From the NCBI GenBank assembly GCA_030390025.1, contig CM059432.1, positions 41,108,001-41,172,000 of the forward strand: a DNA stretch of 64,000 bases, read 5' to 3'. The notes under the pieces are model-generated. The model worked only from the letters and a program-made list of their open reading frames with translations, was not told the DNA's origin and made no database searches. The stretch's first letter is position 1. Each line of letters starts with the position of its first letter. Positions 1,809-58,856 of this stretch are shown piece after piece. The stretch comes from Squalus acanthias. Its lineage: Eukaryota. A program made the position numbers and the translations under genes.

Positions 1809-2014
1809 GTAAGATTCTCATTTTACTGACTATAAAAAAAATATGTTTTAATTAGTCCCTTTACATGAGGCTTGTATACAGAACTCATTATTACAATGGC
1901 CACTTCATCCATGTCTCTGAAACTGGGAAGATATGATCACACATGACTGAAGTTTTGGTGAGATGACCAACATGAGGAAATGATTCAAGTTCTAACTTCA
2001 GGCCTTCGATTTCA

Positions 2015-2225: not shown

Positions 2226-2234
2226 TAATTGGAG

Positions 2235-5330: not shown

Positions 5331-5332
5331 AC

Positions 5333-12590: not shown

Positions 12591-13588
12591 CCAATTCCTT
12601 TTTTGAAAGCCACGATTAAATCTGCATCCACCACCCTTTCAGGCAGTTCATTCTCTGGATTATTGCCCGAGCCACGTGCAAATTTGCATAGAAGCACACA
12701 GATCAGGAGAATTAACACGTGTCTAAAGGGCTGGTGTGGGAAAGAGGGGTTCCTTTTCATGTGACACTGGTACCAGTTCTGGGACAGGAAGGAGCTGTAC
12801 CGATGGGATGGGCTCCACCTGAACCAGGATAGGACCTGTGTCCGAGTGGAAAGGGTAAATAGGGAGGTGGCAAAGGCTTTAAACTAGTAAGATGGGGGGA
12901 GGGATCTACAAGAAACATAACATGCTAAATCTAAACAGAACAGGAAAAGAGAGCATAGGAAAGAATAAAATAAGCGAAGATATTGATGGCAAGGGAATAA
13001 ATAGAGTTACAGAACAGGAGCCTAAAAAGATGGTTAAACATAAAGTGAGAGGAAATCCTATTTAAAAATTAGTTAAACTGTCTGTACAGCAATACACAGT
13101 GTCCGTAATAAAACCCGGGAGCTGGAGGCAATCATGCGTTGCGAGGAACCAGACATAGTACGGATTACTGAGACATGGCTACTGAAAAATCAGGACTGGG
13201 AATTAAACATTACAGGGTATAATATATTTAGAAAAGATAGAGGGGGAAAAAGGGGAGGTGGAGTAGCTGTACTTATTAGGGATAACATAATGGCAGTAGA
13301 AAAAAGTGACGCAGCTATCAGCAAAACAAAAATAGAATCCATATGGATAGAGATAAAAGATAATAAAGGATCAATCACACTAATAGGCGTAGTCTACAGA
13401 CCACCTAATAGTGGAAGGGAGGTGGAGGAAGAAATATGCAGACAAATTAGGGAAATAAGTAAAAACCATAAAATAGTAATCATGGGGGATTTCAGCTACC
13501 CCGATATTAATTGGACAGAAGAGGTAGGTAAAGGGGATAAGGGAATGGAGTTCCTACAATGTGTACAGGACTCCTTTCTAACCCAATA

Positions 13589-13920
13589 CAGGAAACTTTC
13601 GTTTATCCGGCACCGACGGGACCGGCGTGGTGCCGGTTGATCGAAAGTGCCGGATGACAGAGAGGTATACTTACCAAGGTACGAGAGCCCCGTACACGGC
13701 CACAGGCTGAACAATTGGGACCCGGAGAGGGAAGGTAAACGAGACTCCGGCTTTTTCCTCCGTGGCGGCGACAGGTCGGAGTCGGAAGAACGTTGACCCC
13801 CCTTTCGTGGGGGCGAAAGGTCAGAATCGGGGTCTTGTCTGGATAATAAAACTTACCTGATTTTTGCCGGTTAAGCGAGAATTCCGGATATTAGGGTGCC
13901 GGATAAACGAAAGTTTCCTG
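13589..13920. mobile_element. Non-autonomous Tc1/mariner-pogo (Tigger-type) MITE, 332 bp
   Basis: Perfect 26-bp TIRs CAGGAAACTTTCGTTTATCCGGCACC; TA duplication at 13587-88 and 13921-22. Removing it restores the CR1 endonuclease frame (FLTQY|VKSPTRE). Confidence 0.92.
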
Positions 13921-16900: not shown

Positions 16901-17351
16901 ATCAACAACAGGGACTTTATAGTGGCAGGTGAGGTAGGGGAGCAACTGGGGAATAGTGATCATAGGTTATAATATTCAAGATAATGAAAGGAAAGGGAAG
17001 AAGAACAATGGTAATATTAGACGATTGAACTTAAAGAGGAGAATAGGACAGGGCTAAAAAAGAGCGCTGAGCTGCAGCTAAATGGAATAGGCTTAAAAGG
17101 ATAATTAAGTGTAGTAGTAGCAGAATGTACAACTTGACTTTTTAGGAAGGATAGATGACAAAGGGAAACATTTTTGTTTTACAGACTCCGTATTGCTGGT
17201 GTTCATTGGACAATTCATATGTTCTTTTATTGTATTTGGGTCATTTGGTGTTCAGCTTTACTGTAATTATTTTTCTATTTCTAATTTATGAAATATTTCT
17301 CATGGCTTCTTCTAATCTATTGCATGAATTTTTCTCTAATTTTTTCTTCAG

Positions 17352-17925
17352 GCCTGGTGGAAGTTCTGCTTCTGAACAAGATTCCTGTGTGGAACAGCCT
17401 GCTAGCTTGTATCCACAACCTGGAACATCAGGCTACCAGTCCCATTCCTGTCCTGATTGGATAACGCCAGAGTCAGAACCCGAACATGAAGAGAAACCTC
17501 CTCCGATATTAACTATACTCTCACAGCCAAGTGAAAGCTTGGAGCAACAGAAGAAAACAGAGACTCAGCAGGCCACAAATGGCTCTGCCTCACCTTTTTC
17601 ATCTTGTGGGGCGAGAGTATCCTTAACACCATCTCCGAGGCCTGCGAGAAGGGAAGATGTTTTGTTCAGTCACCACCAGCACCACAGGGGTGCCCTACAC
17701 CATATGACCAGTCATGATAATGGAGAAATGCAGTTGATGTCAGCAGAGGAACATGAGATAATTATGGAAAATCAGAGGAAGTTTGGACTGTATCTTGATG
17801 AAAAAAGAGAAAGCCTTAAAAGAAAACAAGTATTAGAGGAAGACCTGTTAAGGGCAAAAATCAGAGTGGAAGAATTAAAGGCAGCAAGACTACAACAAGG
17901 GTTGCCAGCTCTCCAAGATGCCTAA
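17352..17925 (+). CDS. FSBP: FSBP coding exon 2 (terminal), with C-terminal coiled coil
   Basis: Polypyrimidine acceptor TTTTTCTTCAG| at 17351. Its phase joins exon 1 in frame (CG+G = Arg). EEHEIIMENQRKFGLYLDEKRESLKRKQVLEEDLLRAKIRVEELKAARL matches the recalled FSBP C-terminus. Stop TAA at 17923-17925; ATTAAA at 17947. Spliced CDS is 957 nt (318 aa). Confidence 0.92.
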
Positions 17926-18351
17926 TGTTTGTAGCTATTTGTCTCCATTAAAGTCAACTAAAAACATTACTTATGTGCTATGGATTTTAATTCCAAGGAT
18001 TTTTTTTAATGCCACAGTCTGCCAATGAACAGTAAGTTGTTATCACAGTAATATTTAAATGCTTTACCTAATTTTGGCCAAATTTAATAATTGTCCAATA
18101 ATAGACCCTATTTAAAAATGGAAATACTTTGAACTGTCTGTATCTGCTCACGCAAATGAGGAACAATTTCAATATAATTTGTCATATTCTAACCAAACTT
18201 CAGAAACCTTACACCCTTCTCAAAAGTAAGGGTTTCTCGGAAAATGAGCATAGTTCCACTTGGCTGAGTTGGTGAATGCAGTGTGAATCATAGAATCACA
18301 GAAGGAGGACATTCGGCCCATCGTGTCTGCTTGAAATGGGAGCTGAGTCAT

Positions 18352-19227
18352 GGGGGGAAAAATTTGGTTGGTTTGCGCCTCCCGTTAGCGCCTTAAGAGG
18401 GTGCTAATGGGGCACAAAGCAACTAGTGCCCGGGTGCGGCGATGTTTGCGCCGCTCGCGAAATTGACCGGACATTTTGCAGCGGCGCTAATCACTAGCGC
18501 CACGATCTCCTGCGCCGGCAGATCGTGACGTCAGTCGAGCGTGCAACGCCCCGGTAGCGCCCCGGACCAGATATTGAGTGGCACCCCCTGCCTTACCGCC
18601 TGCAGCTAGCAACGACAAGTTGAGGGGAGCATTATGCAGTCGGGAAGGGACTGGGGGAGCGCTATTTAAAGGTGACCGGTTACTGCCTTTTTTTTCGGCG
18701 ACATTTTTGCACCATGCATTCTGAGTGAGAGAGAGACTTCTGGAGAGATTCAACGCTGTGTTGAGGAGTTTTGAGTACTGAGCAGCACTTTGCAGGTTCA
18801 TTTTGATTTGCCCTTCCTTGTATCGATTTAGATGAGACTGTGGGGGCTGCACTCTGACATCTTTCCCTGGGCCTCTCCATTGTTCTTTCCAGCAGATTTG
18901 ATGTACAGGTCTCTCCAGGCCGAGATTCAAGGCTGCAATGAGCAAGGTGTGGATGGAGAGCAAGATCGACCCTCCCCTTTAAGAACTGGCCAGCGCCAGT
19001 GTGTCTGTGTTCCATTGCTGACTGACATCACATGAGCTTCGCCAGCGCTCTGAGATAGCGCCTCACTCCTCGGTGTCAGCACCTTGAGAGGTGTGTAGCG
19101 CCTGATTTAGCGCTCCAATCACCTCCAGGGGCGATAGAAGCCAAGTTTGCAGTCGGAGGTGATAATTCGCGCCAGGCGCCCGGCCGATAATTGCACCCCA
19201 AATGGGACGATACCGAATTTCTCCCCC
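18352..19227. mobile_element. Non-autonomous DNA transposon, probable PIF/Harbinger type (family A, copy 1)
   Basis: Termini GGGGGGAAAAATTT...AATTTCTCCCCC; GC-rich subterminal AGCGCC repeats; colinear with 41839-42731. Confidence 0.8.
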
Positions 19228-19535
19228 ATAGTCATAACGGCACAGAAGGAGGCCATTTGGCCCATCGAGTCCATGCCAGCTCTCTGTAGAGCAATCCAGT
19301 CAGTCCCACTCCCCCGCTCTATCCCCGTAGCCCTGCAAGTTTATTTCCCTCAAGTGCCTATCCAGTCTCCCCTTGAAAACATTGAGTGTCTCCGCTTCCA
19401 CCACTTCCGTCGGCAGCAAGTTCCAGGTCCTCACCACTGGCTGCGTAAAAAAAAAGTTTTCCCTCACATCCCCCCTGTGTCTCTTGCCCAAAACCTTAAA
19501 TCTGTGTCCCCTAGTCCTTGTACCATCAACTATGG
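19228..19535 (-). mobile_element. CR1 3' end fragment
   Basis: TRGHRFKV...FFTQPVVRTWNLLP. Confidence 0.85.
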
Positions 19536-27369: not shown

Positions 27370-28491
27370 AGAAAGCGCAGGAGATCCAGCAGCTAGCTGA
27401 CAACCACGACGTGCGTGGATTCTTTAGCGCAGTCAAGACCATCTACGGCCCAAGCACCCAAGGTCCTACCCCACTGCGGGCCAAGAATGGAGAGCTACTC
27501 ATCAAGGACAGAGAGGCAGTCAGTGCCCGCTGGAAGGAGCACTCCAGCATTGATTTTCCTGTGGCATTGTTTCTGTTGTCGCCGCTGTTTTGGGGCTACA
27601 TTGATAGAGATGACAGAGCGGATTAGGCGGTGGTCTGTCCAGCAGTCGTCAGTTCCTGTCATAGCGCGGGAGATGCGGACGTCCTTGCGGTCCCTCGCTC
27701 GGACGATGACGTAGTCCAGCCTACTGTCAACAAGGGCAGACGTCGATGACTAAGTCCAACACCGCCTTCAGTGTGCCAGTGCAGCCTTCGGTCGCCTGAG
27801 GAAGAGAGTGAAGACCAGGACCTCAAACCCGGCACTAAGCTCATGGTCTACAGAGCAGCAGTGATACCCGCCCTGCTGTATGCCTCAGAGACATGGACCA
27901 TGTACAGCAGGCACCTCAAAGCACTGGAGAGGTACCACCAACGCTGCCTCCGCAAGATCCTGCAAATCCATTGGCAGGATAGGCGCACCAACGTCAGTGT
28001 TCTCGCTCAGGCCAACATCCCCAGCATCGAAGCTTTGACCACGCTGGATCAGCTCCGATGGACGGGTCACATCGTCCGCATGCCTGATACGAGACTCCCA
28101 AAACAAGCGCTCTACTCTGAGCTCCGACATGGCAAGAGAGCCCCAGGTGGGCAGAGGAAATATTTCAAGGACACCCTCAAAGCTTCCTTGGAAAAAGTGC
28201 AACATCCCCACCGACACCTGGGAATCCCTGGCCCAAGACCGCACAAAGTGGAGGAGAAGCATCCGGGAAGGCGTCGAACACCTCGAGTCTCTTCGCCGGG
28301 AGCAAGCGGAAGCCAAGCGCAAGGAGCGCACGTCAACCCAAGCACCCCACCCACCGGCCCCTTCAACCACCGTCTGCCCAACCTGTGACAGAGACTGTAG
28401 GTCCCGCATTGGACTCCTCAGTCACCTGAGAACTCATTTTTAATGTGGAAGCAAGTCATCCTCGGTTCCGAGGGACTGTCTAAGAGAAGAG
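27370..28491 (+). mobile_element. RTE-clade LINE, truncated and internally rearranged
   Basis: KLMVYRAAVIPALLYASETWT and a C-terminal CPTC...SRIGLLSHLRTH zinc finger; GAGAAGAG tail; TSD ACTTCTG at 27363-69 and 28492-98. Confidence 0.9.
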
Positions 28492-33840: not shown

Positions 33841-36800
33841 ACATTAATTGGTGGGGAGTGGGGAGGGTTGGTGTGGAGCTTCAAAGAAGAATTCCGAAAG
33901 TAAGGTGATAGAACCTCAACAGCATTTTGTGTGACTGGATGTGGCTATGATCAGCAGATTGGAACACAGCTCTTTGTATGCATGGCCTATTTACCTTCCT
34001 TAATACTGGATTTATATTACGTCACTGCCAACTGAGGCAGACGCTGCACTAGCGGCAGTGCTGTAATATAACAGCTGGTAGTAGTGCCTATGGTAACATG
34101 GCAACCCATCACAGGAGGTGTCTTTTTCACTGGTTTTGCCAGCAGCAAATATTACCAGCCGTGGGTCACCATCTGTTTTTTATCATTGCTGACCTGTGCA
34201 GTGCTTCCTCCGACATCAGATCCATGGCCAGAAAACTGAAATGTCGACTGCAACGTTTAAATGGCTATGAATGTGCAGTTGTTTTTGTGTTGGGCTAGTG
34301 CTCTGAAATGTGATGCAGTGTAAATTTGCTGGACTCCAGACCACCAGGAGCTGAAACAAATTGAAAGGAGAGCTTGGGACTGTGCTATCATCACTTTGAG
34401 AAAATCCCACTCCTTTTCCATGTTCAAACAGAAATTAAACATTTTTGTTCCAAACATTCTTTGTTGTGCAGATTAAGTAATATATAAAAAATTTAACCTA
34501 GCAAAAAATGTAAACGTCAGTCAAAAATTTGTCTCTTGGATTTATATTATAAACATCATTTCAACAAATGTTATGCTGCATTAAGAGGTCCTATAGACTA
34601 GATTTTATTTGCTTTCTTGGCCTACTAGGTGTCACAGTTAGTTATTAAATATCACACGTGTAAGAATGTTTGTTGATTCCTAATTTCACAAATTGAATGA
34701 TTTATTGACAGTAAAATCAAAAGGTTTAAAGGTTAGCAAGCCAGATCCCTTTGAGTGCTGTGTTCCATTACGGCAGACAGTGTTGCAGTTAAAGTGTATT
34801 CTTGTGGAATTCTCACTAATTAACTGACAAGCATAGCAGTACGAAGTGGTGATCCTTTCTTTGTGACACTCAATGGTTTTCTGCAGGGAAACTGCGGGGA
34901 ATCATCCTGGCTGGATTTCTGAAGTGGATGTGTACGGAATAGCAATGACATGCTTTGTAAATACAGTAGTACTGTGTAGATTGTGTATATCGTTAAGATG
35001 CAAATTCATTATCCCGTGACTTAAAGCATTCAATGTTTCTGTGTGTGTACCAGATAAAGAAAGGGAATTGAATTCACAGAACACTGTGTACTGTGCAAAT
35101 TTTATGCATATCTCTCTAGTTGTACTTAATAAGACTGTGGGTTTGTTTTTGATTGTTCAGTGATTTATTTCCACTGTTTGAGGCACTGCAGCAAAAGGGT
35201 GACATTGTGTGACTGTTACTGTACTTTGGCTCCCTGATTATTAAAACAGTTAAAGGTCGCTGTATGGTGTCACTTTACTTGGGAGCTTTCAGATACTCCA
35301 AAAATTAATTCTGCTGCTACACACAAATGGTGCATACTGCAAGAGATGCTATGCCAGCACAAACTGTTTCAATGTCGTTTTTTTCATGTTTTTAAATGAA
35401 ATACTTAATTTGCTTTACTAAAATATTATGCAGGTGACCTGATGCTGCATTTTCCTTTGCATTTATAAACAAACAAAGTGCCTTGTCTTGCTTTTTCAAG
35501 TAGTGATGCTACTTTTATTCCCCTTTCACCTTTTAAGGCTTGCCTCCAATTACAACTGCACTATCAGAGGCACTTTTATTGTGTAAATGGCATGATTCAT
35601 GTGCTTCCAGGGGAATCATCTGAAGGAAAAAGTTTCACACCTTGCCCCTGCAGGCAAAGTGCCAATGGCAGTAAAGAGATAAATAGCAATCACTGTTGCC
35701 ATTGGGCAATGGATAGATCCTGGCCCGGATAGGCTGAGAGCTCAGTCTGCCTCTTTGCAGGCCACCCCCTGATAATAACAATAATCTGTAGCCAGAATGA
35801 TAATCATGAATACGACTTTGTAGCAACTATGCACACCCAATTCCGATGTTTCTGAATCCGCTTCACATTATAAGCAGGGCAAATTCGGTAGCTAAAACTA
35901 GCTCATATAACCGACCACTTTCCCTATTATTAAACAGGGTATTAGTGTTGCACAAGACAAAGTGGTCATATCTGGTTATTGCACGTAAAACAACAGTGAC
36001 CGAGGCTTCCCTGATTTGCCCCATACATAAATGGACTGCCTGGTGTGGTACTGAGTTATACAAGCTAGTAAAAACCCAGTTTCAGTTTCTGCGCTTAGTT
36101 AGCAGATCTTGACCAGAGTTCAGTGTTGAAGTGGCTTTAGCTTCCCTGAGCTGAGTGGGGTGAATATCATCCCAATCGTGATTGCAGTGACCCCTGTTGG
36201 AAAGTGCCTGTGTGTAAGCATGGGGTGAGAACACATTCAACTGCATTTGCCCCAGACGAACCTCACACGTGAAGAATGGCTACTTGAGCAAGGTGCTGTA
36301 GGGCAGCAGGCACATGTGTAAATATACCCGAGCTTGAGTCAGTGCCTTCAGGATCATAATTAGAGAGGGAGGAGATGCAATTCTGTTTTGAATGTTGAAA
36401 GAATTTCTGTTGTTAACCCAGTTCAGCTTTAAGGACTTTGTAAATAATTTTCCTTGTCAGCATTAAACTCCAACTTCATGTTTTGTATTGCACTAATGAT
36501 AGTATAGTAATCTCTTTCTCCCCTCCCCCTTGCAGCCTAGTTCCTGTCTCGGTGGTTGGCAGGAACTAGGGGTGAAGAGTAGAGGTCAGTGCTATTTGTA
36601 TACAAAACACGTGATGGCAGGGTTTGATGTGTAAGAAAAAAATTTCAAAAATCTCTAAAATTGATCTGGTTTTGCAACATATTTGGTAAGTAGGCAATGT
36701 TAAAGAGCTTTAAAAATAGAAAAGGGATATGTAGGACTGCAATTTAAGTGTATATTTTATTTCAGCATAAAAATTTTCAAAACTCAAATATTGTTCTGCA

Positions 36801-37206
36801 GCTGCATACATTTCAGATCAACTAAGTTTATAGGAAATAAGTTTATACTTAGATATGTAGAATAATGGCCATTGACAGCTTGCCATTATACACTTAACAG
36901 CTTCAATGGATTAGCTGGGCGTTTCTTACACAGTCATTGAGGGATTAGTCTGACCTTCCTTGACCCCTGGTTTAGCATTATGCAAGACTCAGGGTTTTAT
37001 ACTACACAATAGAGACATTCAGCACCTCATTACTCTGAATATTCAAGCTGAATGGGTCCTTTTGCACATCATTACCTAAGAAAGCAGGTTTTGGGTGTGT
37101 TTCTGAAGTGGGGGCTGGCCTTTGGAGGTAGTCTGATTTAAAAGAGCAAGTCAGAGCTCTAGATTATTCAGTGCAAAGTTTAGTAACTGAACAGTTCAGT
37201 TACACC

Positions 37207-37895
37207 ATGGAATCCACAAGAAAAAAACAGAAGGAACTTACTTTATCTGAGAAGATTCAAGTTCTTGAATTGCTTCAGAGGCAAAAGATCTCCCAAATGG
37301 AACTTGCAAAACGTTTTGGGGTTACACAGCCTGTCATCTCCAGACTAATCAAGAACAAGGAAAAAGTCCTGATGGAATGGCACAATAACAGCAATCCAGA
37401 TCGCAAACGCAAAAGGGAAGGGAGGGATAGTGATGTGGATACAGCCCTCTTGCAGTGGTTCCAGATTGCCAGAGCACAACATGTACTCGTCTCAGATGAA
37501 GTCTTGGCTGCGAAGGCCAAGGGCCTAGCGGATGCTATGCAGATCAGGAATTTTGTTCCAACTGTTGGCTGGATCAACAGGTGGAAAGCTCGTCACAGTG
37601 CCTTTTTGCAACAAGCGCATGGAGAAAGCGATGGCACAGGTCAGTCAGTGGGCAGTGCACCACAAGAGGTTGTGCCACCAGAAGGAATGACTGAAGAGGA
37701 ATTTCACCAGTATGTGGAGCAAGCTGCTATTAAGGTATGTGTTTGGGATATAGCTGATCAAGAACCAGGAAACAACATGAAAGCGATTACAAAGTCAGAA
37801 GATATTGATGTTGAGGAAGAGAAATCTATGCCTGTTTTTAAGATGGCAAGAGGAAGTAATGGCCAACTAGCATCTTCATCGAACCAATATAACAT
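37207..37895 (+). CDS. Exon 1 of predicted chimeric gene: TIGD3-like pogo/Tigger DNA-binding region (psq-type HTH plus CENP-B-type HTH), no DDE domain
   Basis: Kozak ACCATGG. LTLSEKIQVLELLQRQKISQMELAKRFGVTQPVISRLIKNKEK...RKRKRE...VDTALLQWF...KAKGLA...FVPTVGWINRWKARH resembles the recalled TIGD3 N-terminus. The frame is uninterrupted and ends at a consensus phase-2 donor AT|GTAAGT at 37896. Confidence 0.85.
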
Positions 37896-38084
37896 GTAAG
37901 TTTAACCACTTTTCACTTTTTTTATGGACTACTTTTAATTAATTTACTGAAAATTAAGGAAAACGTTGTTCAAACAGAGACTTTATATTAAATTACAGGT
38001 TTTCCTTTTTTGGTTCTCCTCATGAGAGTTAAACTGTTCATTATACCTGGTCTCTGCTGCTGAGATGTAGGTTTAAAGATGTAT

Positions 38085-38540
38085 TGTCAGCTTGGCTCAG
38101 TTGATTGCACTCTTGCCTCTGAGAAGGTTGTAGATTCAAATCCTGCTCTGGATTTGAGCACATAATCTGGGCTAACACTTCATGCAATACTGAAGGAGTG
38201 CTGCATTGTTGAAAATGCCATCTTCCGGATGAGCCATTAAATTGAGGCCCTGTCTGTCTTCTCAGATGGATGTAAAAGTTCCAGTGGCACTATTCGTAAG
38301 TAAGTAGGAAATCTCCCCTGCTATCCTGACCAACAATCCTCTCTCAGCCAACACCACCAAAAACAGGTTATCTGCTCATTCATTTGCTGTTTCTGGAACC
38401 TTGCCGTGTGGAAATTGGCTGCCATGTTTGCCTACATCACAACTGTCATAATACTTCAAAAGTAACCAGCTAGCTGTGAAATGCTTTGGGACATTCTGAG
38501 TGCGATGAGGTACTATGTAGTTGTAAATTATTTCTTCTTT
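38085..38540 (+). mobile_element. Deu-domain tRNA-derived SINE, near full length
   Basis: Head TGGCTCAGTTG...GATTCAAATCC; Deu-like core; tail GCTGTGAAATGCTTTGGGAC. Confidence 0.75.
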
Positions 38541-38624
38541 CTTCCCTTCAGCAACACACCATCAAGAGTCAGAACTTTGAATTCTTATTCTTTTCTTTCT
38601 CCTAGTTCAAGGACACTGAAGCCA

Positions 38625-39058
38625 ATTGTAATATAGCACCTTATCACATCACTAAGAAATATCACATGCCATGAATTAAATTGACGAACACTGACTGTTC
38701 TTATGTAGGCAAATGTGGTAGCCATTTTGCGCACAGCAAGATCCCACAAACAGCAAATAGATGAATGATCAGGTAATCTGTTTTTGGTGATGCTGGTTGA
38801 AAGAGGAATGTTGGCCAAGACACCAAGAGAGCTCCATTCCATCAAGTAGTGCCAAAATCCACCTGATGGAGACAGGGCCTCAGTTTAGCATCCCATTTGA
38901 AAGATGGCACTTACAACAATGGATTACAACACTTACAACTCCCACATTATTGTGTTGAAGTGATAGCCTATGTCATGCGCTCAAGTCATGGAAGGCGGAT
39001 GAACACACACTTTTCTGACTCCGATGCAAGAGTGCTTCTAACTGAGCCAAGCTGAGAC
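38625..39058 (-). mobile_element. Deu-domain tRNA-derived SINE, inverted relative to 38085-38540
   Basis: Reverse-complement head ...AAGAGTGCTTCTAACTGAGCCAAGCTGAGAC; core GCAAGATCCCACAAACAGCAA. Confidence 0.75.
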
Positions 39059-39761
39059 TCCATTGTACATAAACAAAATTATGTCTTGTTCTTTCCTTTT
39101 ATAAAATTTTGCCTCCATTTTTTTTTTCTCCTCTCCACCTCTCCTGAGGGTGTAACTGCCTTGCTTGGGAATGGTTCCATGGGTGCCAGTCACCCTCTGG
39201 TATATTTTACAAGTGATGATTTTGAGCCTTGACGGTAAATGTTCGTAGGCTACTTAACCACAAAAGTCAAGCCCAATCCGGGCCTTATTGACATCCTGGA
39301 TGCACGTCCAGCAGGGGTTGTTAGCGGCAATCAGGAGTGCAAATCTCAGTGATTATTTCCCCTCTGGTCATTGAAGTCCGTTGCAGTTTGCTTACCTTGG
39401 CCCTAGATAAAATAATTCAGACAAAGTTGGGGAATTGAACTTCCCTGTTTTGTATGGCTCCACTATTTGCTGCTTAAATTTGAATAGCCATTGGGAAAAC
39501 CATTTTGTCTGTTTGTAATCAAAAGCAGCTATACAGTTGCAATGTTTAAAAAAAAAAATGGTGAGCACACTTGTTTATAAACAGCGAAACATTGGCTGTG
39601 GTTTTACACCTGGTGAATTCCTAATCTTAACTAAGAGGGATGCTGAAGTTATGTCAGAACATTCATATTTTTGAACACTAATTTTTTGCAATAAATGGTT
39701 GGGGAAATTATGGAACTAATTATTTACTTGGTTTAACTTTTAAAATTTAATTTTTATACAG

Positions 39762-40314
39762 GTCCTATGGGAGGAGTTCTGCTTCAAGAAGAGATATCTG
39801 TGTGGAAATGCCTAGCAGTTCTTATTCACAGCCTGGAACCTCAGGCTACCAGTCCTATGCATTTCCTAGGTGGGTAGCCCCAGAGATAGGACGAAAGCAT
39901 GAAGGGAAATCTCAGTTAACTGCTCAGCCACAGGCGAGTAACAGCTTTGAAGGACTGGACAAGGCAGAGACTCATCAAATTACAGATGTGTCTCTTTCTC
40001 CACCTTGTGCTAGAATACCCTCCGCACCATCTCCTAGACCTGTTACAAGGGATGACCTTTTATTTCTGCAGCAGCACCAGGCGGGCATCCCACGCTATGG
40101 GACCAGGCATGAGAAGGAAATACCAGCAGTCTCCTCGGAAGAGCAAGAGCTTATCCTGGAAAACCAAAGAAAGTTTGGGTTATATCTTGATGAGAAAAGG
40201 GAAAGCCTAAAAAGATTACACGCACTGGAGGAAGAACTGCTCAGGGCAAAAATCGAAGTTGAACAGTTAAAAGCATTACGACTACGAGGATTGTCCGTGT
40301 TTAAGGACCCCTAA
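39762..40314 (+). CDS. Exon 2 of predicted chimeric gene: diverged paralogue of the FSBP terminal exon
   Basis: Acceptor TTTTTATACAG| at 39761, phase 2, in frame (AT+G = Met, then SYGRSSAS...). Colinear with 17352-17925 (QPGTSGYQS, PSPRP, ENQRKFGLYLDEKRESLKR, LEEELLRAKI). No stops or frameshifts; TAA at 40312-40314. Confidence 0.87.
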
Positions 40315-40790
40315 ATGTAGAACCATTAATGTTTTCCAATTGAGTTCAGTGTTTGATCCCTACAGTGGCTTTTTACTATCACTAAAGGGGCATTATTGAT
40401 ACAAAGAGTGTGAATTTCCACGGCGGTTCTCCCGTTTGTCTGCTGTAACTTCACCGGAAGAGCTGCGGAAACCCCTGTGGAAATTCATCCCCAAATTGTT
40501 TATCAAGACATTTTACCACGATTGTACACAGAGGGATATATGATAGTAACATTGAATCTAAATTTAGGAACTGGGCTCTGCTGATGGTTCAGTGGATAAA
40601 TGCAGCATGGTATGTAATACTGAGCCAAACAGATGGAATGTCCCAAGTTTGATCTCCGTCTGCGCTGAGTTAATTGATGTAAGTTGTGGAGGCAATGTCC
40701 TTGGGCTTGGGAGGGGAAAAAATTGACTACGGTTCCCTTTCATGACCACCATACAGTCACTCTGCTAGAAACCACTTGTGTGGACATTAG

Positions 40791-41540
40791 GGGCTGGATT
40801 TTGAATGACCCATGGAGTCGGGTTTGGAGGCGTGTGGGGGGTTAAATTTGCGGGGTCGGGGGTCCTGACTCCATCCCGCCTCCACGCAATTTTGACAAAA
40901 TCAGTCGCGGGGTTCCCAACTCCGTCCCGCCTCCAAAAGGCGGGAGAGGCCATTAAAGCCCTTAACAAGCTCTAAATTGGCTCTGTAATGCGATTTTCAA
41001 ATGTTTTAGCTAGTTTAACCCTTTTCTGACGTGAAGCACGCCTGGTGTGAAACACTCCAGTGAAACCTGGCGGGAGCACAAGTGGATAGCTGACTATCGG
41101 CTGCAGGTCCACTATTACAACAGAGATGTGATGAAGGTAGTAGTAGTATTAGGTGGTGTGAAAGTCGCGTCTGATGCTGCTGCATTGAATGTGTTCAGAG
41201 ACTGCATGGCGTTTGCTGTGAGAGGACTTGGATGCAAAAAAAACGCTCTCGCTCTCGCTGTCTCTCCTTTCCTCCCCCCACATCTTGCATTGAGGTCCGC
41301 TCAAGGCAGGTCCTCTCTCACCAACAGTCTCTCAAACTAGGCAGTCAGCAATGATGACATCATCAGAGGCGACTTTCAGACTCAAACCACTAATTAGTTC
41401 ATGGGTTCCCACATGCTGGAACTCAATTGACCAATTAAGTGAAAATTGCATCATTCTTCCACATTCAACTGGAGTCGGGTGGGGAAACACGAAATGCGGA
41501 TGACACGACCCCAACCCGACCCCAAGACAAAATCCAGCCC
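40791..41540. mobile_element. Non-autonomous DNA transposon, probable Harbinger type (family C)
   Basis: TIRs GGGCTGGATTTTG / CAAAATCCAGCCC; 3-bp TSD TAG on both sides; subterminal GTCGGG/CCCGAC repeats. Confidence 0.82.
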
Positions 41541-41838
41541 TAGGTGTTTAATTAACTCTGGTAGTTGAACACATTTTAATACAATTCCTATTCTAACTCT
41601 TAGAAACATAATGCAGGATAGTAAAAGACCATTATAGTCCATCGGCTGGTGTCTAGGAAATATCATATCCTGTGATAACCGCTCTCTAATTTTTTGATAC
41701 AATCAGCCCCCACTGCCTGCCTTGGCAGTCCATTCCATACATTCACCATCCTCTTGTGTAAAGTTGTAACATTTAAACTGTCTTTTCACCTTAATGGTTA
41801 TGCCCTCTTGTAGAATTTATGACTGTGTTAAACATATT

Positions 41839-42731
41839 GGGGTAAAAATTCACTTGGTTGCGCCTCCCGTTAGCGCCTTAAGAGGGCGCTAATGGGGCGC
41901 AAAGCCGCTAACGCCCGGGCGCAGCGATGTTTGCGCCGCTCGAGAACTTAACTTGAGATTGTGCGGCGGCGCTAAAACTTACCGCTGCGACCACCTGCGC
42001 GCGCAGATTGTGACGTCATTCCATGGTGCAACGCCCTTGTGGCGCCCCGTAGCGGAAATTGAGTGGCGCCCCCTGCCTTACCGCCTGGCGCTTCCAACGA
42101 CCAGAAGACTGGAACGCTATCAATCGCTGTGGGGCTGGGGGGGGCGCTATTTAAAGGGGGCCTCTTCCTGTCTTTTATTGTTGGTGGCATTTTTGAACTA
42201 CGCATTCTGAGAGAGAGAGGGAGAGACTTCTGGAGAGATTCAACGTTGTGTGAAGGAGTTTTGGGTACTGAGCAGCACTTTGCAGGTTCATTTTGATTTG
42301 CCATTCCTTGTATCGATTTAGCAGAGACTGTGGGAGCTGCACTCTGAGCTCTTTGCCTGGTACTTTCCATTGTTCTTTCCAGCACATTTGATGTGCAAGT
42401 CTCTCCAGGCCGAGATTCAAGGCAGCAATGAACAGGATGTGGATGGAAAGCAAGATTAACCATCCCCTTTAAGAACTGGCCCGTGCCATTGTGTGTGTGT
42501 TCCATTGCTGACTGACATTACATGAGCTTCGCCAGCGCTCCGAGTTAGCGCCTCACTGCTCGGCCTTTGCGCCTTAAGAGAGGTGTGCAGCGCCTGCTTT
42601 AGCGCTCCACTCACCTCCCGGGGCGGTAAAAGTGAAGTTTCCTGTCAGTGCCGATAATTAGCGCCAGGCGCTAATATTTGCGTCCGGACGATATTTGCGC
42701 CCCAAATGGGGCGCGACCTAATTTCTACCCC
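41839..42731. mobile_element. Probable Harbinger-type non-autonomous element (family A, copy 2)
   Basis: TIRs GGGGTAAAAATT / AATTTCTACCCC; TSD ATT at 41836-38 and 42732-34. Confidence 0.85.
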
Positions 42732-42734
42732 ATT

Positions 42735-43220
42735 GACTTATATCTTGTCTATGCCTTTTTAGGATCTTAAATTATTCTGAAAAATCCCCCTGCACCTTCT
42801 CCTGTCCAGTGTAAACATTCCCAGATTCTGTATCCTCTCTTTATAACTCGGGTGCCTATTCCCAGCTATCAATTTAGTTGCCATTCACTGCACTTTCTAA
42901 GGTCTGGATCTCTTCCTCATAATATGGTGACCAGAATTATACACAGTACTCCTGGTGAATCCTAACCAGTACTCCATAAAAACTCTGAATCACTTCCTCT
43001 ATTCCTTTGGTGATAAAGCCCAAGATCTTATTTGCTGTCATTACTGTTGCTGATAGCTTCAGCGAACTAGCCATCAGTACCCCAAAATAGCTCTCCTGTG
43101 TTGTCTCCTGTAGAATAATGCCATTTAGCTTATATTGCCACTGTTTATTATCCTTTCCCATGACTTTGCATTTGTTCACATTGAATAACATCTGCTACTT
43201 GTCAGCCCAGCTTCCCAAGT
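42735..43220 (-). mobile_element. Old CR1 RT fragment
   Basis: FNVNKCKVM...ANKILGFI...QEYCV. Confidence 0.75.
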
Positions 43221-43224
43221 GATA

Positions 43225-46062
43225 AGGTTAAGATGGAGAGTGAAGTAGTTGACTCAGAGACTAGGGTCCTGAATTTAAATAAAGGAAACTACGATGGTAT
43301 GAGGCGCGAGTTGGCTAGGATGGATTGGGGAGCATTACTTAAAGGGCTGACAGTGGATAGGCAATGGCAAACATTTAAAGATCGCATGGATGAACTACAG
43401 AATTTGTTCATCCCTGTTTGGCATAAAAATAAAAAAAAAGTGACTCAATTGTGGCTAACAAGGGAAATTAGGGATAGCATAAGATCCAAGGAGAGGACAT
43501 ATAAATTGGCCAGAAAAAGCAGCAAACCTGAGGATTGGGAGCAGTTTAGGATTCAGAAAAGGAGGACAAAGGGATTAATTAAGAGGGGGGAAATAGAATA
43601 TGAGAGTAAGCTTGCAGGGAACATAAAAACTGACTGTAAAAGCTTCTATAGATATGTGAAGTGAAAAAGATTGAAGTCAAGCGTAGGTTCCTTGCAGTCA
43701 GAATCAGGGGAATTTATAATGGGGAACAAAGAAATGGCTGACCAATTAAATACATACTTTGGTTCTGTCTTCACAAAGGAGGACACAAGTAACCTCCCAG
43801 AGATGTCAGGGAACATAGGGTCTAATGAGAGGGAGGAATTGAATGAAATCAGTATTTGTAGGGAAATGATGTTAGGGAAATTGACAGGATTGAAGGCCGA
43901 TAAATCCCCAGGGCCTGATAATCTACATCCTAGGGTACTTAAGGAAGTGGCCCTAGAAATAGTAGATGCATTGCTGGTCATCTTCCAAAATTCTATAGAC
44001 TCTGGAACAGTTCCCATGGATTGGAGGGTAGCTAATGTAACCCCACTATTTAAAAAAGGTGGTAGAGCGAAAACGGGGAATTATAGACCTGACATCGGTA
44101 GTGGGGAAAATGCTAGAGTCCATTACAAAAGATGTAATAGCAGAGCACTTGGAAAACAGTGACAGGATCGGACAAAGTCAACATGGATTTACAAAAGGTA
44201 AATCATGCTTGACTGATCTACTGGAATTTTTTGAGTATGTAACTGGTAGAATAGATAAGGGAGAACCAGTGGATGTGGTGTATTTGGACTTTCAGAAGAC
44301 TTTCGATAAGGTCCCGCATAAGAGATATGCGTGCAAAGTTAAAGCACATGGGATTGGGGGTAAGGTACTGACTTGGATAGAGAACTGGTTGGCAGACAGG
44401 AAGCAAAGAGTTGGAATAAACGGGTCTTTTTCCGAGTGGCAAGCAGTGACTAGTGGGGTACCGCAGGGATCGGTGCTAGGACCCCAGCTGTTCACAATAT
44501 ATATTCATGATCTAGACGAGGGAACTAGATGTAATATCTCCAAGTTTGCAGACGACACAAAGCTGGGTGGGCGTGTGTGCTGTGAGGAGGATGCAGAGAA
44601 ACTGCAGTATGATTTGGACAGGTTGGGTGATTGGGCAGATGCATGGCAGATGCAGTATAATGTGGATAAATGTGAGGTTATCCACTTTGGTGTCAAAAAC
44701 AGGAAGGCAGATTATTATCTGAATGGCAATAGATTGGGAAAAGGGGAAGTGCAACAAGACCTGGGTGTCCTTGTGCACCAGTCGCTGAAGGTAAGCATGC
44801 AGGTGCAGCAGGCGGTTAAGAAGGCAAATGGTATGTTGGCCTTCATAACGAGAGGATTCGAGTACAGGAGCAAGGATGTCTTGCTGCAGTTGTACAGGGC
44901 CTTGGTGAGACCACACCTTGAGTATTGTGTGCAGTTTTGGTCGCCTTATCTGAGGAAGGATGTTCTTGCCATGGAGGGAGCGCAGCGAAGATTCACCAGA
45001 CTGATACCTGGGATGGCAGGAATAACGTATGTAGAGAGATTGGGTCGATTAGGCTTATATTCGCTAGAGTTTAGAAGAATGAGAGGGGATCTCATTGAAA
45101 CTTATAAAATTCTAACAGGACTAGACAGACTAGATGCAGGAAGGATGTTCCCGATGGTGGGGGAGTCCAGAACCAGGGGTCACAGTCTAAGGATAAGGGG
45201 TAAGCCATTTAGGACTGTTAGGGTGAAAATTATAGGGCTTAAAGCAGCAACGTAAAGAATGAAAGAATGTGCTGTAAAAGGTGGACTCGTAAATGAGACA
45301 AGACAGAATGGCTTCGCTGATACAGTGCGATGGGTAATGTCTATTGTCAACGTGCGTACGTGCGAGACAACTTGAAGCCCACCAAGGAGGAGCAAACGAC
45401 TACGATAATAGCACAACGGTTGCACCTGAGAACCAATCACCGCATGACCAGTCAGACCGGTCAAGCAGATGTGGCGCAACACTCTGTATGTTTATAGTTT
45501 CGGAAGGGAAGTAACAAGAAAAATCAGCTTAAAGTGCAGATTATAATCAAGTCAGTGGTGGAGATATATGATTGGGTAAGGGGCTTGTTGTTAGGAGAAT
45601 GTGATTGGGTGGAGACATTTGTATGTGATGAATTGCATATCCGGCCGTATAATGTATAAAAGAAGTTCCGATACCACTGTAACGACGAGAAGTTGATCAC
45701 TAGACCGCGGGGTCTATGGCTCTTCTCCCAGGGCGCCCTGTATAATAAACTGTGAGCTTCTGCTTTGAGACAGACTTGAGTGAATTTATTTTTCACCAAC
45801 AGGACTGAGATGAGGAGGAATTTCTTCACCCAGAGAGTGGTGAACCTGTGGAATTCTCTACCACAGAAGGCAGTTGAGGCCAATTCATTAAATATATTCA
45901 AGAAGGAGTTAGATATATTTCTTAAGGCTAAAGGGATCAAGGGATATGGGGAGAAAGCAGGGACAGGGTACTGAATTTGGATGATCAGCCATGATCTCAT
46001 TAAATGGCGGAACAGGCTCGAGGGGCCGAATGGCCTACTCCTATCTTCTATGTTTCTATGTT
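43225..46062 (+). mobile_element. 5'-truncated CR1 LINE ORF2 to 3' tail, interrupted by a solo LTR
   Basis: ORFs 43233-43664, 43671-44162, 44059-45255 ([19 protein letters not shown]) and 45780-45974; tail TTCTATGTTTCTATG. Confidence 0.95.
45216..45801 (+). mobile_element. Solo LTR, 586 bp
   Basis: Termini TGTTAGGGTGAAAA...TTTTCACCAACA; 4-bp TSD GGAC at 45212-15 and 45802-05; TATAAA at about 45655 and AATAAA at about 45744 suggest + orientation. Confidence 0.85.
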
Positions 46063-52026: not shown

Positions 52027-52572
52027 GAGATGTAATTGGATTGTGTGTTTTGGTGAGAACAGGGTAGGTGAAAAACAGGGTGGAGGGGGGGAAAAAACTT
52101 CTTCTGCCTAATGGCACCTTCTGAAATACTCCCTAATTTTAAAAATGCGTATGTTACATTCTGATACACTTTCACCTTTGCTGTTTACACGAGGACAGCA
52201 ATTATCAGATCTGCTTCCTGGATAACCTAGCCCTCATTAATGCATTATTTTAGTGTGATTACCAGACAGTATTTGAGAAAGGTGATTAAGTTCTTTCCAT
52301 TTTACACTACAGCAAAAACAATGCATTTGCATCTCATTTTGTGCTATAATTTATTTTAGATTTTGTTCTGTAGTCATGTATATAATTTATGGCACACCAT
52401 TAAGCAGGGCACAGAAACAGTGTGAATGAGGTTACCACCGACATTTGTTATTAATTTTAGGTGGTATACATCTACAATCCCCAAAAAGCAAATACTCCAC
52501 GAGAGTACATGTGGTTAAATTCCTGCCCAGGATGGAAATTACCTCGATCTTGTAATGTGTTGTTGGAGAATG

Positions 52573-54125
52573 TGCTATGGGCCCCGACAACATCCCGGCT
52601 ATTGTGCTGAAGACTTGTGCTCCAGAACTAGCCGCGCCTCTAGCCAAGCTGTTCCAGTACAGCTACAACACTGGCATCTATCCGACAATGTGGAAAACTG
52701 CCCAGGTATGCCCTGTCCACAAAAAGCAGGACAAATTCAATCTGGCCAATTACCGCCCCATCAGTCTACTCTCAATCATCAGCAAAGTGATGGAAGGTGT
52801 CATCAACAGCGCTATCAAGCAGCACTTACTCACCAATAACCTGCTCACTGATGCCCAGTTTGGGTTCCGCCAAGACCACTCTGCTCCCAACCTCACTACA
52901 GCCTTGGTCCAAACATGGACAAAGGAGCTGAATTCCAGAGGTGAGGTGAGAGTGAGTGCCCTTCACATCAAGGCAGCATTTGACCGGGTGTGGCATCAAG
53001 GAGCCCTAGTAAAACTGAAGTCAATGGGAATCGGGGGGATAACTCTCCACTGGCTGGAGTCATACCTAGCACAAAGGAAGATGGTTGTGGTTGAAGGTCA
53101 ATCATCACAGCCCCAGGACATCGCTGCAGGAGTTCCTCAGGGCAGTGTCCTAGGCCCAACCATCTTCAGCTGCTTCATCAATGACCTCTCCAACATAAGG
53201 CCAGAAATGGGGATGTTCGCTGATGACTGCATAGTGTTCAGCACCATTCACAACTCCTCAGATAATGAAGCAGTCCATGCCCGCATGCAACAAGACCTGG
53301 ACGACGTTCAGGTTTGGGCTGATAAGTGGCAGGTAACATTCGCGCCACACAAGTGCCAGGCAATGACTATCTCCATCAAGCGAGAGTCTAACCACCGCCC
53401 CTTGACATTCAACGGCATTACCATCGCCGAATCCCTCACCATCAACATCCTGGGGGTTACCATTGACCAGAAACTTAACTGGACCAGCCACATAAATACT
53501 GTGGCAACAAGAGCAGGTCAGAGGCTAGGTATTCTGTGGCGAGTGTCTCACCTCCTGACTCCCCAAAGCCTTTCCACCATCTACAAGGTACAAGTCAGGA
53601 GTGTGATGGAATACTCTCCACTTGCCTGGATGACTTCAGCTCCAACAACACTTAGGAAGCTCGACACCATCCAGGACAAAGCAGCCTGCTTGATTGGCAC
53701 CCCATTCACCACCTTAAACATTCATTTCCTCCACCACTGGCGTACCGTGGCTGCAGTGTGTAGTATCCACAAGATGCACTGCAGCAAGTCGCCAAGGTTT
53801 CTTCGGCAGTACCTCCCAAACCCGCGACCTCTTCCATCTAGAAGGACAAGGGCAGCAGGCACATGGGAACACCACCACCTCCAAGTTCCCCTCCAAGTCA
53901 CACACCATCCTGACTTGGAAATATATCGCCGATCCTTCATCGTCGCTGGGTCAAAATCCTGGAACTCCCTCCCTAACAGCACTGTGGGAGTACCTTCACC
54001 ACACGGACTGCAGCACTTCAAGAAGGCGGCTCACCACCACCTTCTGAAGGGCAATTGGGGATCGGCAATAAAAGCTGGCTTTGCCAGCGACGCCCACATC
54101 CCATAAACAAATTTAAAAAAAAAAA
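52573..54125 (+). mobile_element. 5'-truncated CR1/L2-superclade LINE (second family) with an open RT frame and poly(A) tail
   Basis: 509-aa ORF with [26 protein letters not shown] and MFADD; A-run at about 54115-54125. Confidence 0.92.
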
Positions 54126-57134: not shown

Positions 57135-58856
57135 TGAAGGGTACTGAAGGAGGTGGCCCTAGAGATAGCGGATGCACGAAGTATGATTTTTCAGAATTCA
57201 TTAGACTCGGGAACAGTGCCCATGGATTGGAGGGTAGCTAACGTTACCCCACTATTTAAAAAGGGGGGTAGGGAAAAAGCAGGTAATTACAGACCTGTAA
57301 GCCTTACATCAGTTGTGGGCAAAATGCTGGAGTCCATCATTAAGGATGAAATAGCGGAGCACTTAGCAAATGGGGACAGGATAGGACAGAGTCAACATGG
57401 ATTTACAAAGGGTAAATCGTGCTTGACTAATCTATTGGAATTTTTTGAGGGAGTAACTGGTAAAATAGATGGGGGAGAGCCAGTAGATGTGGTGTACCTG
57501 GACTTCCAAAAGGCCTTCGACAAGGTCCCACATAAAAGATTAGCATGGAAAATTGAAGCTCATGGGATAAAGGGGAAAGTATTGACGTGGATAGAGAACT
57601 GGCTGTCAGATAGAAAACAGAGAGTTGGAATAAACGGCTCATTTTCTGAATGGCAGGCAGTAACAAGTGGGGTACCACAGGGATCTGTCCTGGGTCCCCA
57701 GCTGTTCACAATTTACATTAATGACCTGGATCAGGGAGTCGGATGCAGCATTTCCAAATTTGCAGACGACACTAAACTAGGAGGGGGGGTGGGCTCAGAG
57801 GAGGAGACCAGGAAGCTCCAGAGCGATTTGGACAGACTGGGTGATTGGGCGGATAAATGGCAGATGCACTATAATGTGGACAAGTGCGAAGTTATCCACC
57901 TTGGGTGCAGGAACGGGAGGGCAAATTATTATTTAAATGGCAATAAATTGGGAGAAGGGGAAGTACAGAGAGACCTGGGTGTTCTTGTACACCAGTCACT
58001 GAAGGCGAGCATGCAGGTGCAACAGGCGGTCAAGAAGGCAAACGGTATGCTGGCCTTCATAACAAAAGGGTTGGAATACAGGAACAGGGATACCTTGCTG
58101 CAGCTGTACAGGGCACTGGTGAGACCACACCTCGAGTACTGTGTACAGTTTTGGTCGCCTCATCTGAGGAAAGATGTTCTTGCCATGGAGGGGGTGCAGC
58201 GGCGATTCACCAGGCTGATACCAGGAATGGCGGGATTGACCTATGAGGAGAGACTATGTAGTTTAGGGATGCACACACTGGAGTTTAGAAGATTGAGAGG
58301 GGACCTCATAGAAGTGTATAAAATTCTGACAGGTCTAGACAGACTAGATGCAGAAGGAATGTTTCCCTTGGCGGGTGAGAACAGAACTAGAGGACATAAT
58401 TTAAGGATAAGGGCTAAACCATTTATAGAAACATAGAAACTAGGAGCAGGAGTAGGCCATTCGGCCCGTCGAGCCTGCTCCACCATTCAATACGATCATG
58501 GCTGATCATCCAAAATCCAGTACCCTGTCCCTGCCCCCTCACACAGAATCCCCATCGAGCCTGCACCGACACATATCCCACCAGATATTTAGGACAGAAA
58601 TGAGGGGGAATTTCTTCACTCAGAGGGTGGTGAACCTGTGGAACTCATTGCCACAGAGGGCAGTGTACGCCAGCTCATTAAATATATTTAAGAGGGAATT
58701 AGATATATTTCTACAGGCAAAAGGGGTTAAGGGTTACGGAGAGAAGGCGGGGACGGGATACTGAATTGGAGGATCAGCCATGATCTCATTAAATGGCGGA
58801 GCAGGCTCGAAGGGCCGGATGGCCTACTCCTGCTCCTATCTTCTATGTATCTATGA
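57135..58856 (+). mobile_element. 5'-truncated CR1 LINE with a 162-bp antisense insert at 58425-58586
   Basis: 427-aa RT ORF; the frame resumes (FRTEMRGNFF) after the insert; tail TTCTATGTATCTATG. Confidence 0.93.

Follow-up and report, generated by a model that had tools for sequence, protein, structure and literature searches.

We analyzed a 64,000-nt stretch of Squalus acanthias DNA on contig C8 (C8:41108001-41172000, hereafter the window), which holds a gene of two coding exons at 37207-40314 that joins a TIGD3-like frame to a copy of the last exon of FSBP. A preliminary description made from the letters alone had read this gene as a TIGD3-like CENP-B/psq head spliced to a duplicated FSBP last exon. 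This core reading is supported by orthologues with the same junction, by joined contigs from skates and by the position of the head in the TIGD3 group of a phylogenetic tree. The fusion gene is a real, old and strongly constrained chimera.

Structure of the fusion gene and its relation to FSBP

The coding sequence starts with the ATG at 37207 (context ACACCATGG) and lies on the + strand. The first coding exon, designated exon A (37207-37895; 689 nt, 229 codons plus 2 nt), contains the TIGD3-like frame and ends at the donor AT/GTAAGT at 37895/37896, where the slash marks the splice boundary here and below. The intron (37896-39761, + strand; 1866 nt) is in phase 2 and ends at the acceptor TTTTTATACAG/G at 39761/39762. 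Exon B (39762-40314, + strand) comprises 553 nt, or 183 codons and the stop codon TAA at 40312-40314. The joined exons form a frame of 1242 nt encoding 413 aa with a single terminal stop. Read without splicing, exon A gives an intact 230-aa frame that ends at the in-frame TAA at 37897-37899. The coordinates, splice sites, phase and 413-aa frame first proposed for the gene are all exact in the sequence, and this anatomy is confirmed.

Pfam detected CENP-B_N at residues 5-56 of exon A (33.7 bits, cut-off 21.2) and HTH_Tnp_Tc5 at residues 75-130 (44.7 bits, cut-off 22.2). A C-terminal transposase motif follows at residues ~151-213. DDE_1 gave no Pfam match in exon A, and no DDE remnant was found in the 64-kb window at E < 1e-3. 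The two domains and the missing DDE_1 agree with what the preliminary description had expected. Residues 7-131 aligned to the CENP-B DNA-binding domain, which has two helix-turn-helix units, over its full solved length (1HLV residues 4-131, E 6.5e-11). To judge from these matches, exon A encodes a CENP-B-type bipartite helix-turn-helix domain; unlike CENP-B, it has neither the CENP-B dimerisation domain nor a DDE-like core.

The predicted structure was obtained with AlphaFold2 for the Scyliorhinus canicula orthologue (P0203), using 11 sequences. Head residues 10-135 were modelled confidently as two helical modules, and the predicted local distance difference test (pLDDT) of the blocks in helices 13-135 was mostly 78-90. 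A helix at 163-180, over an invariant transposase motif, was weakly predicted. Residues 181-324 had low confidence. In the part encoded by exon B, a predicted disordered stretch precedes a long C-terminal helix of 56 residues (aa ~356-411, pLDDT 86-94).

Exon B and the last exon of FSBP, a neighbour of the fusion gene on the same strand, are paralogues. FSBP exon 1 (1408-1808, + strand) encodes the FSBP head, a Myb_DNA-bind_5 domain, and ends at the phase-2 donor ...CAACG/GTAAGA at 1808/1809. The FSBP last exon, the parental copy of exon B, lies at 17352-17925 on the + strand behind the acceptor cttcag/G at 17351/17352. The two tails were 54% identical (91/168, E 3e-47). At the DNA level, 17341-17893 matched 39751-40285 at 68.7%, and the match comprised only the exon and 11 bases of the acceptor region. 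The junction residue is homologous in the two genes (R/PGGSSAS in FSBP, M/SYGRSSAS in the fusion) and the phase is identical. The FSBP-type tail exon had exactly two matches in the genome, both in the window.

The head of FSBP has no second copy. FSBP residues 1-134 matched the window only at 1408-1809, and the Myb/SANT exon had a single match in the whole 3.71-Gb genome (six candidates scored), in line with the earlier observation that the window holds no second Myb/SANT exon. In Pfam, this exon matched Myb_DNA-bind_5 only, and the Harbinger link that the preliminary description gave for its domain family is putative for FSBP. FSBP is not mentioned in a paper on the MSANTD family (PMC9392472). 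The FSBP protein of the window was 93.6-97% identical to FSBP of Heptranchias perlo.

The fusion gene therefore shares with FSBP the paralogous last exon, the acceptor position, the phase and the C-terminal helix (ENQRKFGLYLDEKRESLKR...LEE.LLRAKI.VE.LKA), as well as its location in the same intron of RAD54B. In contrast to FSBP, it has no Myb_DNA-bind_5 domain and carries the TIGD3-like head instead, so that the NCBI name "FSBP-like" used for Stegostoma tigrinum fits only the second half of the protein. By its domain content, the fusion gene is not an FSBP orthologue.

Exon B also contains an in-frame AG/GT (39868-39871, + strand; boundary 39869/39870), a candidate alternative splice site according to predicted isoforms of other species. 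The Hemitrygon akajei model (377 aa, 36 residues shorter) uses the homologous site as an alternative acceptor. Scyliorhinus torazame and Heterodontus francisci each have an isoform X2 model in which this site acts as an internal donor.

Orthologues, sequence constraint and splicing

Orthologues were searched with exon A among proteins of 402-2000 residues. Four matches were obtained from 3760 candidates, three of which were full-length fusions (P0001, P0002 and P0003; 413-414 aa) covering 100% of exon A at 84-91% identity, with E-values of 1e-121 to 1e-131. They belong to Chiloscyllium plagiosum (LOC122548990, 414 aa, 91% identity to exon A), Stegostoma tigrinum ("fibrinogen silencer-binding protein-like", 414 aa, 89%) and Amblyraja radiata (LOC116972426, 413 aa, 84%). 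With such E-values, and with Pfam scores above the curated cut-offs, the likeness is far beyond chance. A search with the tail found the same three orthologues and the 377-aa protein of Hemitrygon akajei. The 90% clusters added Scyliorhinus canicula (LOC119972401), S. torazame, Chiloscyllium punctatum, Heterodontus francisci, Leucoraja erinacea and Narcine bancroftii, and also Pristis pectinata, in which a 1614-aa model named "RAD54B" contains the fusion. In total, annotations of the fusion exist for 11 named elasmobranchs besides Squalus acanthias (six sharks and five batoids), and most of them carry the label "uncharacterized protein".

All 11 species share one junction, in which NQ(Y/H)N(M/T/I) at the end of exon A is followed directly by (S/P)(Y/H)GR. 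In the alignment of the 11 orthologues, the mean column identity was 85%, and residues 1-32 and 155-184 were invariant. A 47,149-nt contig of Heterodontus francisci is listed with both the fusion and an FSBP-tail protein. Among longer proteins, the search with the head returned elasmobranch fusions only. Among the 150 matches listed from a library of 1.84 billion representatives, one covered residues 1-229, and this was the elasmobranch cluster itself (453 bits); the runner-up reached 200.8 bits and matched the head only. A relative of more than 50% identity, for example a chimaera orthologue, would be hidden inside the elasmobranch cluster, and the gene may thus be older than its elasmobranch members indicate. 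Sharks and batoids separated ~270-300 million years ago.

The papers searched on FSBP, RAD54B, pogo domestication, transposase capture and host-transposase fusion yielded no description of a TIGD3-FSBP fusion. The preliminary description likewise knew of none; the gene itself is already annotated in RefSeq. The fusion is thus predicted in public annotation, and only its description would be new.

Exon A had one 100% match in the Squalus acanthias genome, and the next best match was at 57% (150 of 1210 candidates scored). Exon A shared only 26% identity with an abundant pogo family that has intact 605-aa frames. More than 100 scored copies of this pogo/Tigger-like family (e.g. on C2, C3 and C10) had an open frame of ~605 aa, many with identical scores, and the family looks like a recently active DNA transposon.

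To judge from substitutions, the gene is under strong sequence constraint. Compared with the run of a close relative (X3), ten of the 13 listed coding differences were synonymous third-position changes, including all six in exon A, and the three replacements were all in the variable part of the tail. The chance of at least 10 synonymous changes among 13 is 3e-5 to 7e-4 (expected share 0.22-0.30, transition bias 1 to 8). Between sharks and batoids, identity was 84-91% over exon A, and 82% for the fusion tail compared with 78% for the FSBP tail. A neutral transposon fragment, one of the outcomes that had been named as fatal to the fusion, is at odds with an exon that is single-copy, intact in 11 species and marked by mostly synonymous differences. 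Exon A is not such a fragment.

Evidence on splicing came from the Amblyraja radiata/Leucoraja erinacea cluster, in which five open reading frames (ORFs) of Logan contigs run across the junction in one frame. They encode 425 aa (contig of 1832 nt), 383 aa (1636 nt), 359 aa (1552 nt), 359 aa (1561 nt) and 270 aa (1302 nt). These contigs are too short to hold the intron together with the frame. The simplest reading is that they are transcripts. The same cluster includes the unspliced layout, namely P0208 (230 aa), which stops right after exon A, and P0207 (196 aa), which runs from the intron into exon B.

For the window itself, Logan contigs of four runs were compared with 35000-41500. The kind of these runs is only guessed, and none of the runs holding the stretch is on record as RNA. 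One contig (X1) was unspliced across the acceptor (39634-39929), another (X2) lay within the intron (39158-39404), and the X3 contig stops at 37891 with 34 unplaced, unread letters. As unspliced and intronic contigs occur among them, the runs may be DNA or unspliced RNA. Two stretches, 38038-38905 in the intron and 40642-41500 on the 3' side of exon B, had very high summed contig depth in all or most of the four runs, with a peak of ~38,000 in the bin 38689-38905; these are high-copy repeats.

Origin of the two exons in the RAD54B intron

The closest gene to exon A in the Squalus acanthias genome is a TIGD3-like gene on contig C16 (locus L002, C16:36862963-36866397), whose intact ORF (1495-3006) encodes 503 aa. 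Its protein contains CENP-B_N, HTH_Tnp_Tc5 and a complete DDE_1 at 198-371. The gene is single-copy, with the next genome match at 34%. Exon A residues 3-113 were 59% identical to residues 1-111 of this protein, and residues 115-150 were 44% identical to residues 112-147. Beyond the DDE_1 domain the likeness resumes, with 39% identity of residues 151-196 to 387-432 and 41% of residues 197-213 to 439-455. The two frames end in NQYNM-stop (exon A) and NQYQSV-stop (L002), with 3/5 residues aligned. Exon A lacks residues 148-386 of the L002 protein, and with them the entire DDE_1, as well as a module at residues 465-497 that other TIGD3 proteins keep. Because exon A is collinear with the TIGD3-like gene from start to stop, it represents a whole TIGD3-like frame from which the core was excised in frame. 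The term "DNA-binding head" used earlier for exon A is right about the CENP-B and helix-turn-helix domains and too narrow for a whole frame with an invariant C-terminal transposase motif.

Matches to TIGD3-type proteins were also seen in other species. BLASTP of exon A against the TIGD3-like protein of Pristiophorus japonicus (P0052) gave 55% identity (E 3e-58), and the C-terminal motif matched the same protein at 44% over 36 residues (E 3e-8). Among proteins named TIGD3 or TIGD3-like, identity to exon A was 58% over 106 residues in Coturnix japonica and 47-52% in Alligator mississippiensis, Protopterus annectens and Tyto alba.

We constructed a maximum-likelihood tree of the heads with 39 rows and 150 columns. 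The fusion heads formed one clade (100/100), sister to the P. japonicus TIGD3-like protein (99/94). Both were placed inside a group with the lungfish and sauropsid TIGD3 rows (90/83). Branch lengths were 0.01-0.09 changes per column for the fusion heads and 0.3-0.8 for most TIGD3 rows, so that TIGD3 proteins evolve faster than the fusion heads on this tree. The sister position of the fusion heads to the shark protein within the TIGD3 group favours a duplication in the chondrichthyan TIGD3-like lineage. On these sequence comparisons, the head more likely stems from the TIGD3-like gene lineage of chondrichthyans than from an active transposon that had newly inserted. The transposase capture proposed in the preliminary description is retained for the TIGD3-like nature of the head and revised in its source, given the tree and the single-copy relative.

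Comparison with TIGD3 itself shows both likeness and difference. TIGD3 has CENP-B_N, HTH_Tnp_Tc5 and DDE_1 in ~470 aa, as described by Gao et al. 2020 (PMC7386202). The fusion head has the same layout of the first two domains, with 55-59% identity to shark TIGD3-like proteins over ~147 residues, and shares the start ME..KKQ.ELTL and the C-terminal motif PP.GMT.EEF. TIGD3 keeps DDE_1 and the module 465-497; the fusion head has lost both, and splicing removes its stop and appends an exon of FSBP type. As DDE_1 is absent from exon A and present in the separate L002 gene, the fusion gene is a TIGD3-derived paralogue and not TIGD3.

The L002 gene groups with lungfish and sauropsid TIGD3 and has a close counterpart in P. 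japonicus (P0052). This suggests that TIGD3-type domestication reaches back to cartilaginous fish, earlier than the lobe-finned-fish origin given by Gao et al. 2020.

The donor of exon A coincides with the end of the old frame. Unspliced, AT/GTAAGT reads ATG TAA, and the L002 gene ends in GTG TAA AT, which already contains GTAAAT. We have moderate confidence, given how short the alignment of the two frame ends is, that the old stop-codon region became the 5' splice site of exon A.

The tail was compared with FSBP tails of other vertebrates. The fusion tail was 54% identical to elasmobranch FSBP tails and 33-36% identical to tetrapod ones, and elasmobranch and tetrapod FSBP tails were 38-41% identical to each other. 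The fusion tail and the elasmobranch FSBP tails have in common the motifs SSAS..D.CVE, QPGTSGYQS, SPRP and GLYLDEKRESLKR (tetrapods: GLYVQEKRDGLKR). Since the fusion tail is nearer to the elasmobranch than to the tetrapod tails, the exon duplication is placed on the cartilaginous-fish side; this dating uses identities and shared motifs of three groups with no outgroup. The C-terminal helix segment is conserved in FSBP from sharks to mammals and is the best-conserved part common to the fusion and FSBP. In a protein atlas search, the tail scored 0.77 at best, which is below what the tool counts as a lead.

RAD54B exons were found on the + strand of contig C8 at 41097990-41098196 and at 41196561-41264995. 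These same-strand exons flank the window, which places all of it, with both FSBP and the fusion gene, in one RAD54B intron of ~98 kb. In agreement with this nesting, the Pristis pectinata model has the order RAD54B N-terminus, FSBP tail, head, second tail and rest of RAD54B. Predicted isoforms in Pristis pectinata and in a cat, Leopardus geoffroyi, read FSBP-type tail exons into RAD54B. Splicing of RAD54B 5' exons to the FSBP tail was considered and dropped, as the short proteins labelled "RAD54B" are ORFs of the tail exon alone.

A collinear match of ~900 bp on the 3' side of both tails (18350-19229 and 41836-42733, 82%) was likewise rejected as a part of the tail duplication and is a young, high-copy repeat. 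The ~895-bp repeat at 41836-42733 has at least 40 genome copies at ~100% identity (783 candidates) and was recently active. The copy at 18350-19229 is older, and it is by chance that each of the two copies lies 3' of a tail of FSBP type. Long ORFs on both strands fill much of the RAD54B intron in the window, at 5133-12141, 13077-13640, 27750-28443, 43185-45255, 52556-54106 and 57138-58436. By eye, they resemble parts of LINE-type endonuclease and reverse transcriptase, with recurring FADDTKL-type motifs.

Assembly, alternative explanations and relation to known fusion genes

We consider it highly probable that this is an elasmobranch gene of two coding exons, composed of a DDE-less TIGD3-like frame and a duplicate of the FSBP terminal exon within a RAD54B intron, and it may act as a regulator. 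A TIGD3-like frame of the pogo superfamily would have been duplicated before the shark-batoid split. The DDE_1 core and the second C-terminal module have been lost in frame, and the DNA-binding domain and a short invariant motif were kept. A 5' splice site over the old stop removes that stop, so that the frame continues in phase 2 into the FSBP terminal exon in its tandemly duplicated copy. Exon B would supply a disordered linker and a helix of ~55 residues. The head may bind specific DNA in the manner of TIGD3, and the FSBP-type helix may pair with itself or with FSBP. The protein would then be a regulator of transcription or chromatin with a DNA specificity unlike that of FSBP.

The pairing was addressed by complex prediction. 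The FSBP helix and the fusion helix scored 0.35 and the best of three controls 0.00 (alignments unused), which weakly supports an interaction. Of 78 solved complexes, 51 reached the mark of this prediction, compared with 2 of 108 mismatched pairs; with scores at 0.60 or under, 5 of the 78 solved complexes reached it, as did all four mismatches that passed (of 180). The runs agreed in at least 74% of contacts, with a partner pLDDT of at least 78.

Several points weigh against this account. No 37895-39762 joint was present among the 15 joints listed from the Logan contigs of the four runs over 35000-41500 (nine more are unlisted). The joined skate contigs, from assemblies with no visible library type, could conceivably stem from a processed DNA copy. 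The annotated orthologues are automatic gene predictions, and such predictions can be wrong at this locus, as the 1614-aa Pristis pectinata model is a RAD54B/FSBP chimera. The synonymous count is a plain count of the 13 listed differences, with 31 further ones unlisted, rather than a codon-model dN/dS. The homology of the stop codons rests on five aligned residues after a 33-residue gap. The tree has 150 columns only, and the orthology of shark TIGD3-like and tetrapod TIGD3 proteins is putative. Exon B had no Pfam match at E up to 0.1, so the tail is without a known family. Lastly, Gao et al. 2020 (PMC7386202) list TIGD3 among the pogoR derivatives first seen in lobe-finned fish.

The last point bears on the most serious alternative, in which an active pogoR-type transposon landed in the RAD54B intron, upstream of the FSBP exon duplicate, and was captured directly. 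The single-copy shark TIGD3-like gene would then be not the parent but an independent domestication from the same transposon family. A lobe-finned-fish origin of TIGD3 would indeed make the shark gene independent, and tetrapod host-transposase fusions reportedly arise mostly by splicing to an inserted transposon, often with splice sites supplied by it (10.1101/2020.05.07.082677). Like the copy of an inserted element, exon A covers the whole frame from start to stop, and the abundant family with intact 605-aa frames indicates that pogo elements have been active in this lineage. However, the genome holds no multi-copy relatives of exon A (next 57%) or of the TIGD3-like gene (next 34%), the surroundings of exon A yielded neither inverted repeats nor DDE remnants, and a full transposase (P0004) matched only 37216-37626. 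The event may be old enough for transposon copies to have decayed, whereas the position of the heads inside the TIGD3 group, sister to the shark gene, speaks for descent from a resident gene. We regard direct capture as possible and the less probable origin. Far less can be said for two separate products, with exon A a stand-alone 230-aa DNA-binding protein, exon B an alternative terminal exon of FSBP or RAD54B, and the fusion models artefacts. The unspliced reading does give an intact 230-aa frame, the skate ORFs P0208 and P0207 are on record in this form, and chimeric predictions occur at the locus in the RAD54B models of Pristis pectinata and Leopardus geoffroyi. Yet in five short contigs from skates a single frame spans head and tail, and 11 species of sharks and batoids retain the phase-2 donor, the acceptor and an open frame after joining. 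Right up to the junction, the residues that end exon A and those that begin exon B show conservation as coding sequence. In addition, the tail is as constrained as the FSBP tail even though no Myb/SANT exon of its own lies upstream. This makes separate products very improbable.

Two further readings accept the fusion as such. The protein could be a decoy that titrates FSBP through the helix, or TIGD3 partners through the retained C-terminal motif, and so competes with one or both parental proteins. The helix is the best-conserved part common to FSBP, the fusion-FSBP helix pairing is weakly predicted (score 0.35), and the transposase motif 155-184 is invariant in all orthologues. However, the interaction is a predicted one, and the DNA-binding head is the most conserved part (residues 1-32 invariant, branches 0.01-0.09), which is hard to explain if DNA binding were dispensable. 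We consider a pure decoy quite unlikely. A broader and rather improbable proposal sees the FSBP-type terminal exon as a reusable capture module that was twice given a DNA-binding first exon of mobile-element type. A Myb/SANT exon would have come first, giving FSBP in early jawed vertebrates; after tandem duplication of the exon, a DDE-less TIGD3-like frame would have followed in the elasmobranch stem, its own stop supplying the donor. The two paralogous C-terminal helices might still pair, and FSBP/fusion heterodimers might bring two unrelated heads together at a DNA-repair locus.

The account we prefer, a TIGD3-derived frame joined to an FSBP terminal exon, places the gene among the host-transposase fusion genes, and it is not categorically new biology. 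Exon A carries Pfam domains of transposase origin (HTH_Tnp_Tc5 and CENP-B_N) and is fused in frame to host-derived sequence in a distinct exon, with the 413-aa frame, the FSBP paralogue and 11 species as evidence. By copy number, the locus is stationary and single-copy, and the substitution pattern and shark-batoid identities point to purifying selection on the transposase part between species more than 50 million years apart. RNA evidence for the fusion intron is indirect and comes from the five joined skate contigs. The tetrapod fusions KRABINER, SETMAR and PGBD3-CSB, and POGK as a pogo example, likewise join separate transposase-type and host exons by splicing, and the tetrapod fusions are described as single-copy and constrained, as is the gene reported here. 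In SETMAR and PGBD3-CSB, the host exons are upstream and the transposase is downstream. KRABINER is described with the same order, whereas the transposase part of the shark gene is the 5' exon with its own start. The fusion gene also differs from the tetrapod fusions in its elasmobranch lineage, in its host part, which is a duplicated 3' terminal exon without a known domain, and in its likely source, an already stationary TIGD3-like gene. The new features here are the whole, core-excised frame, the donor overlapping the old stop, the single-copy shark TIGD3-like gene as nearest relative and the nesting in a RAD54B intron.

Cosby et al. (preprint 10.1101/2020.05.07.082677) reported 94 fusion events in 596 tetrapod species, and the words FSBP, shark and pogo do not appear in the text of that preprint. 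Gao et al. 2020 (PMC7386202) described 12 pogo-derived vertebrate genes, all with a fully retained DDE domain; of five cartilaginous-fish names looked up in their supplementary tables, two were present, Callorhinchus milii and Rhincodon typus. The gene of Squalus acanthias extends both catalogues, as far as these sources present them, by an old and constrained fusion of cartilaginous fish, and adds a pogo-derived gene that shed its catalytic core. It shows a stepwise assembly, in which a whole intronless frame lies beside a duplicated terminal exon, with a donor over the old stop and the same phase as in the parental gene. No function is assigned to the FSBP tail, and for FSBP the gene provides a natural domain swap in which the same tail is found with two DNA-binding heads in one genome.

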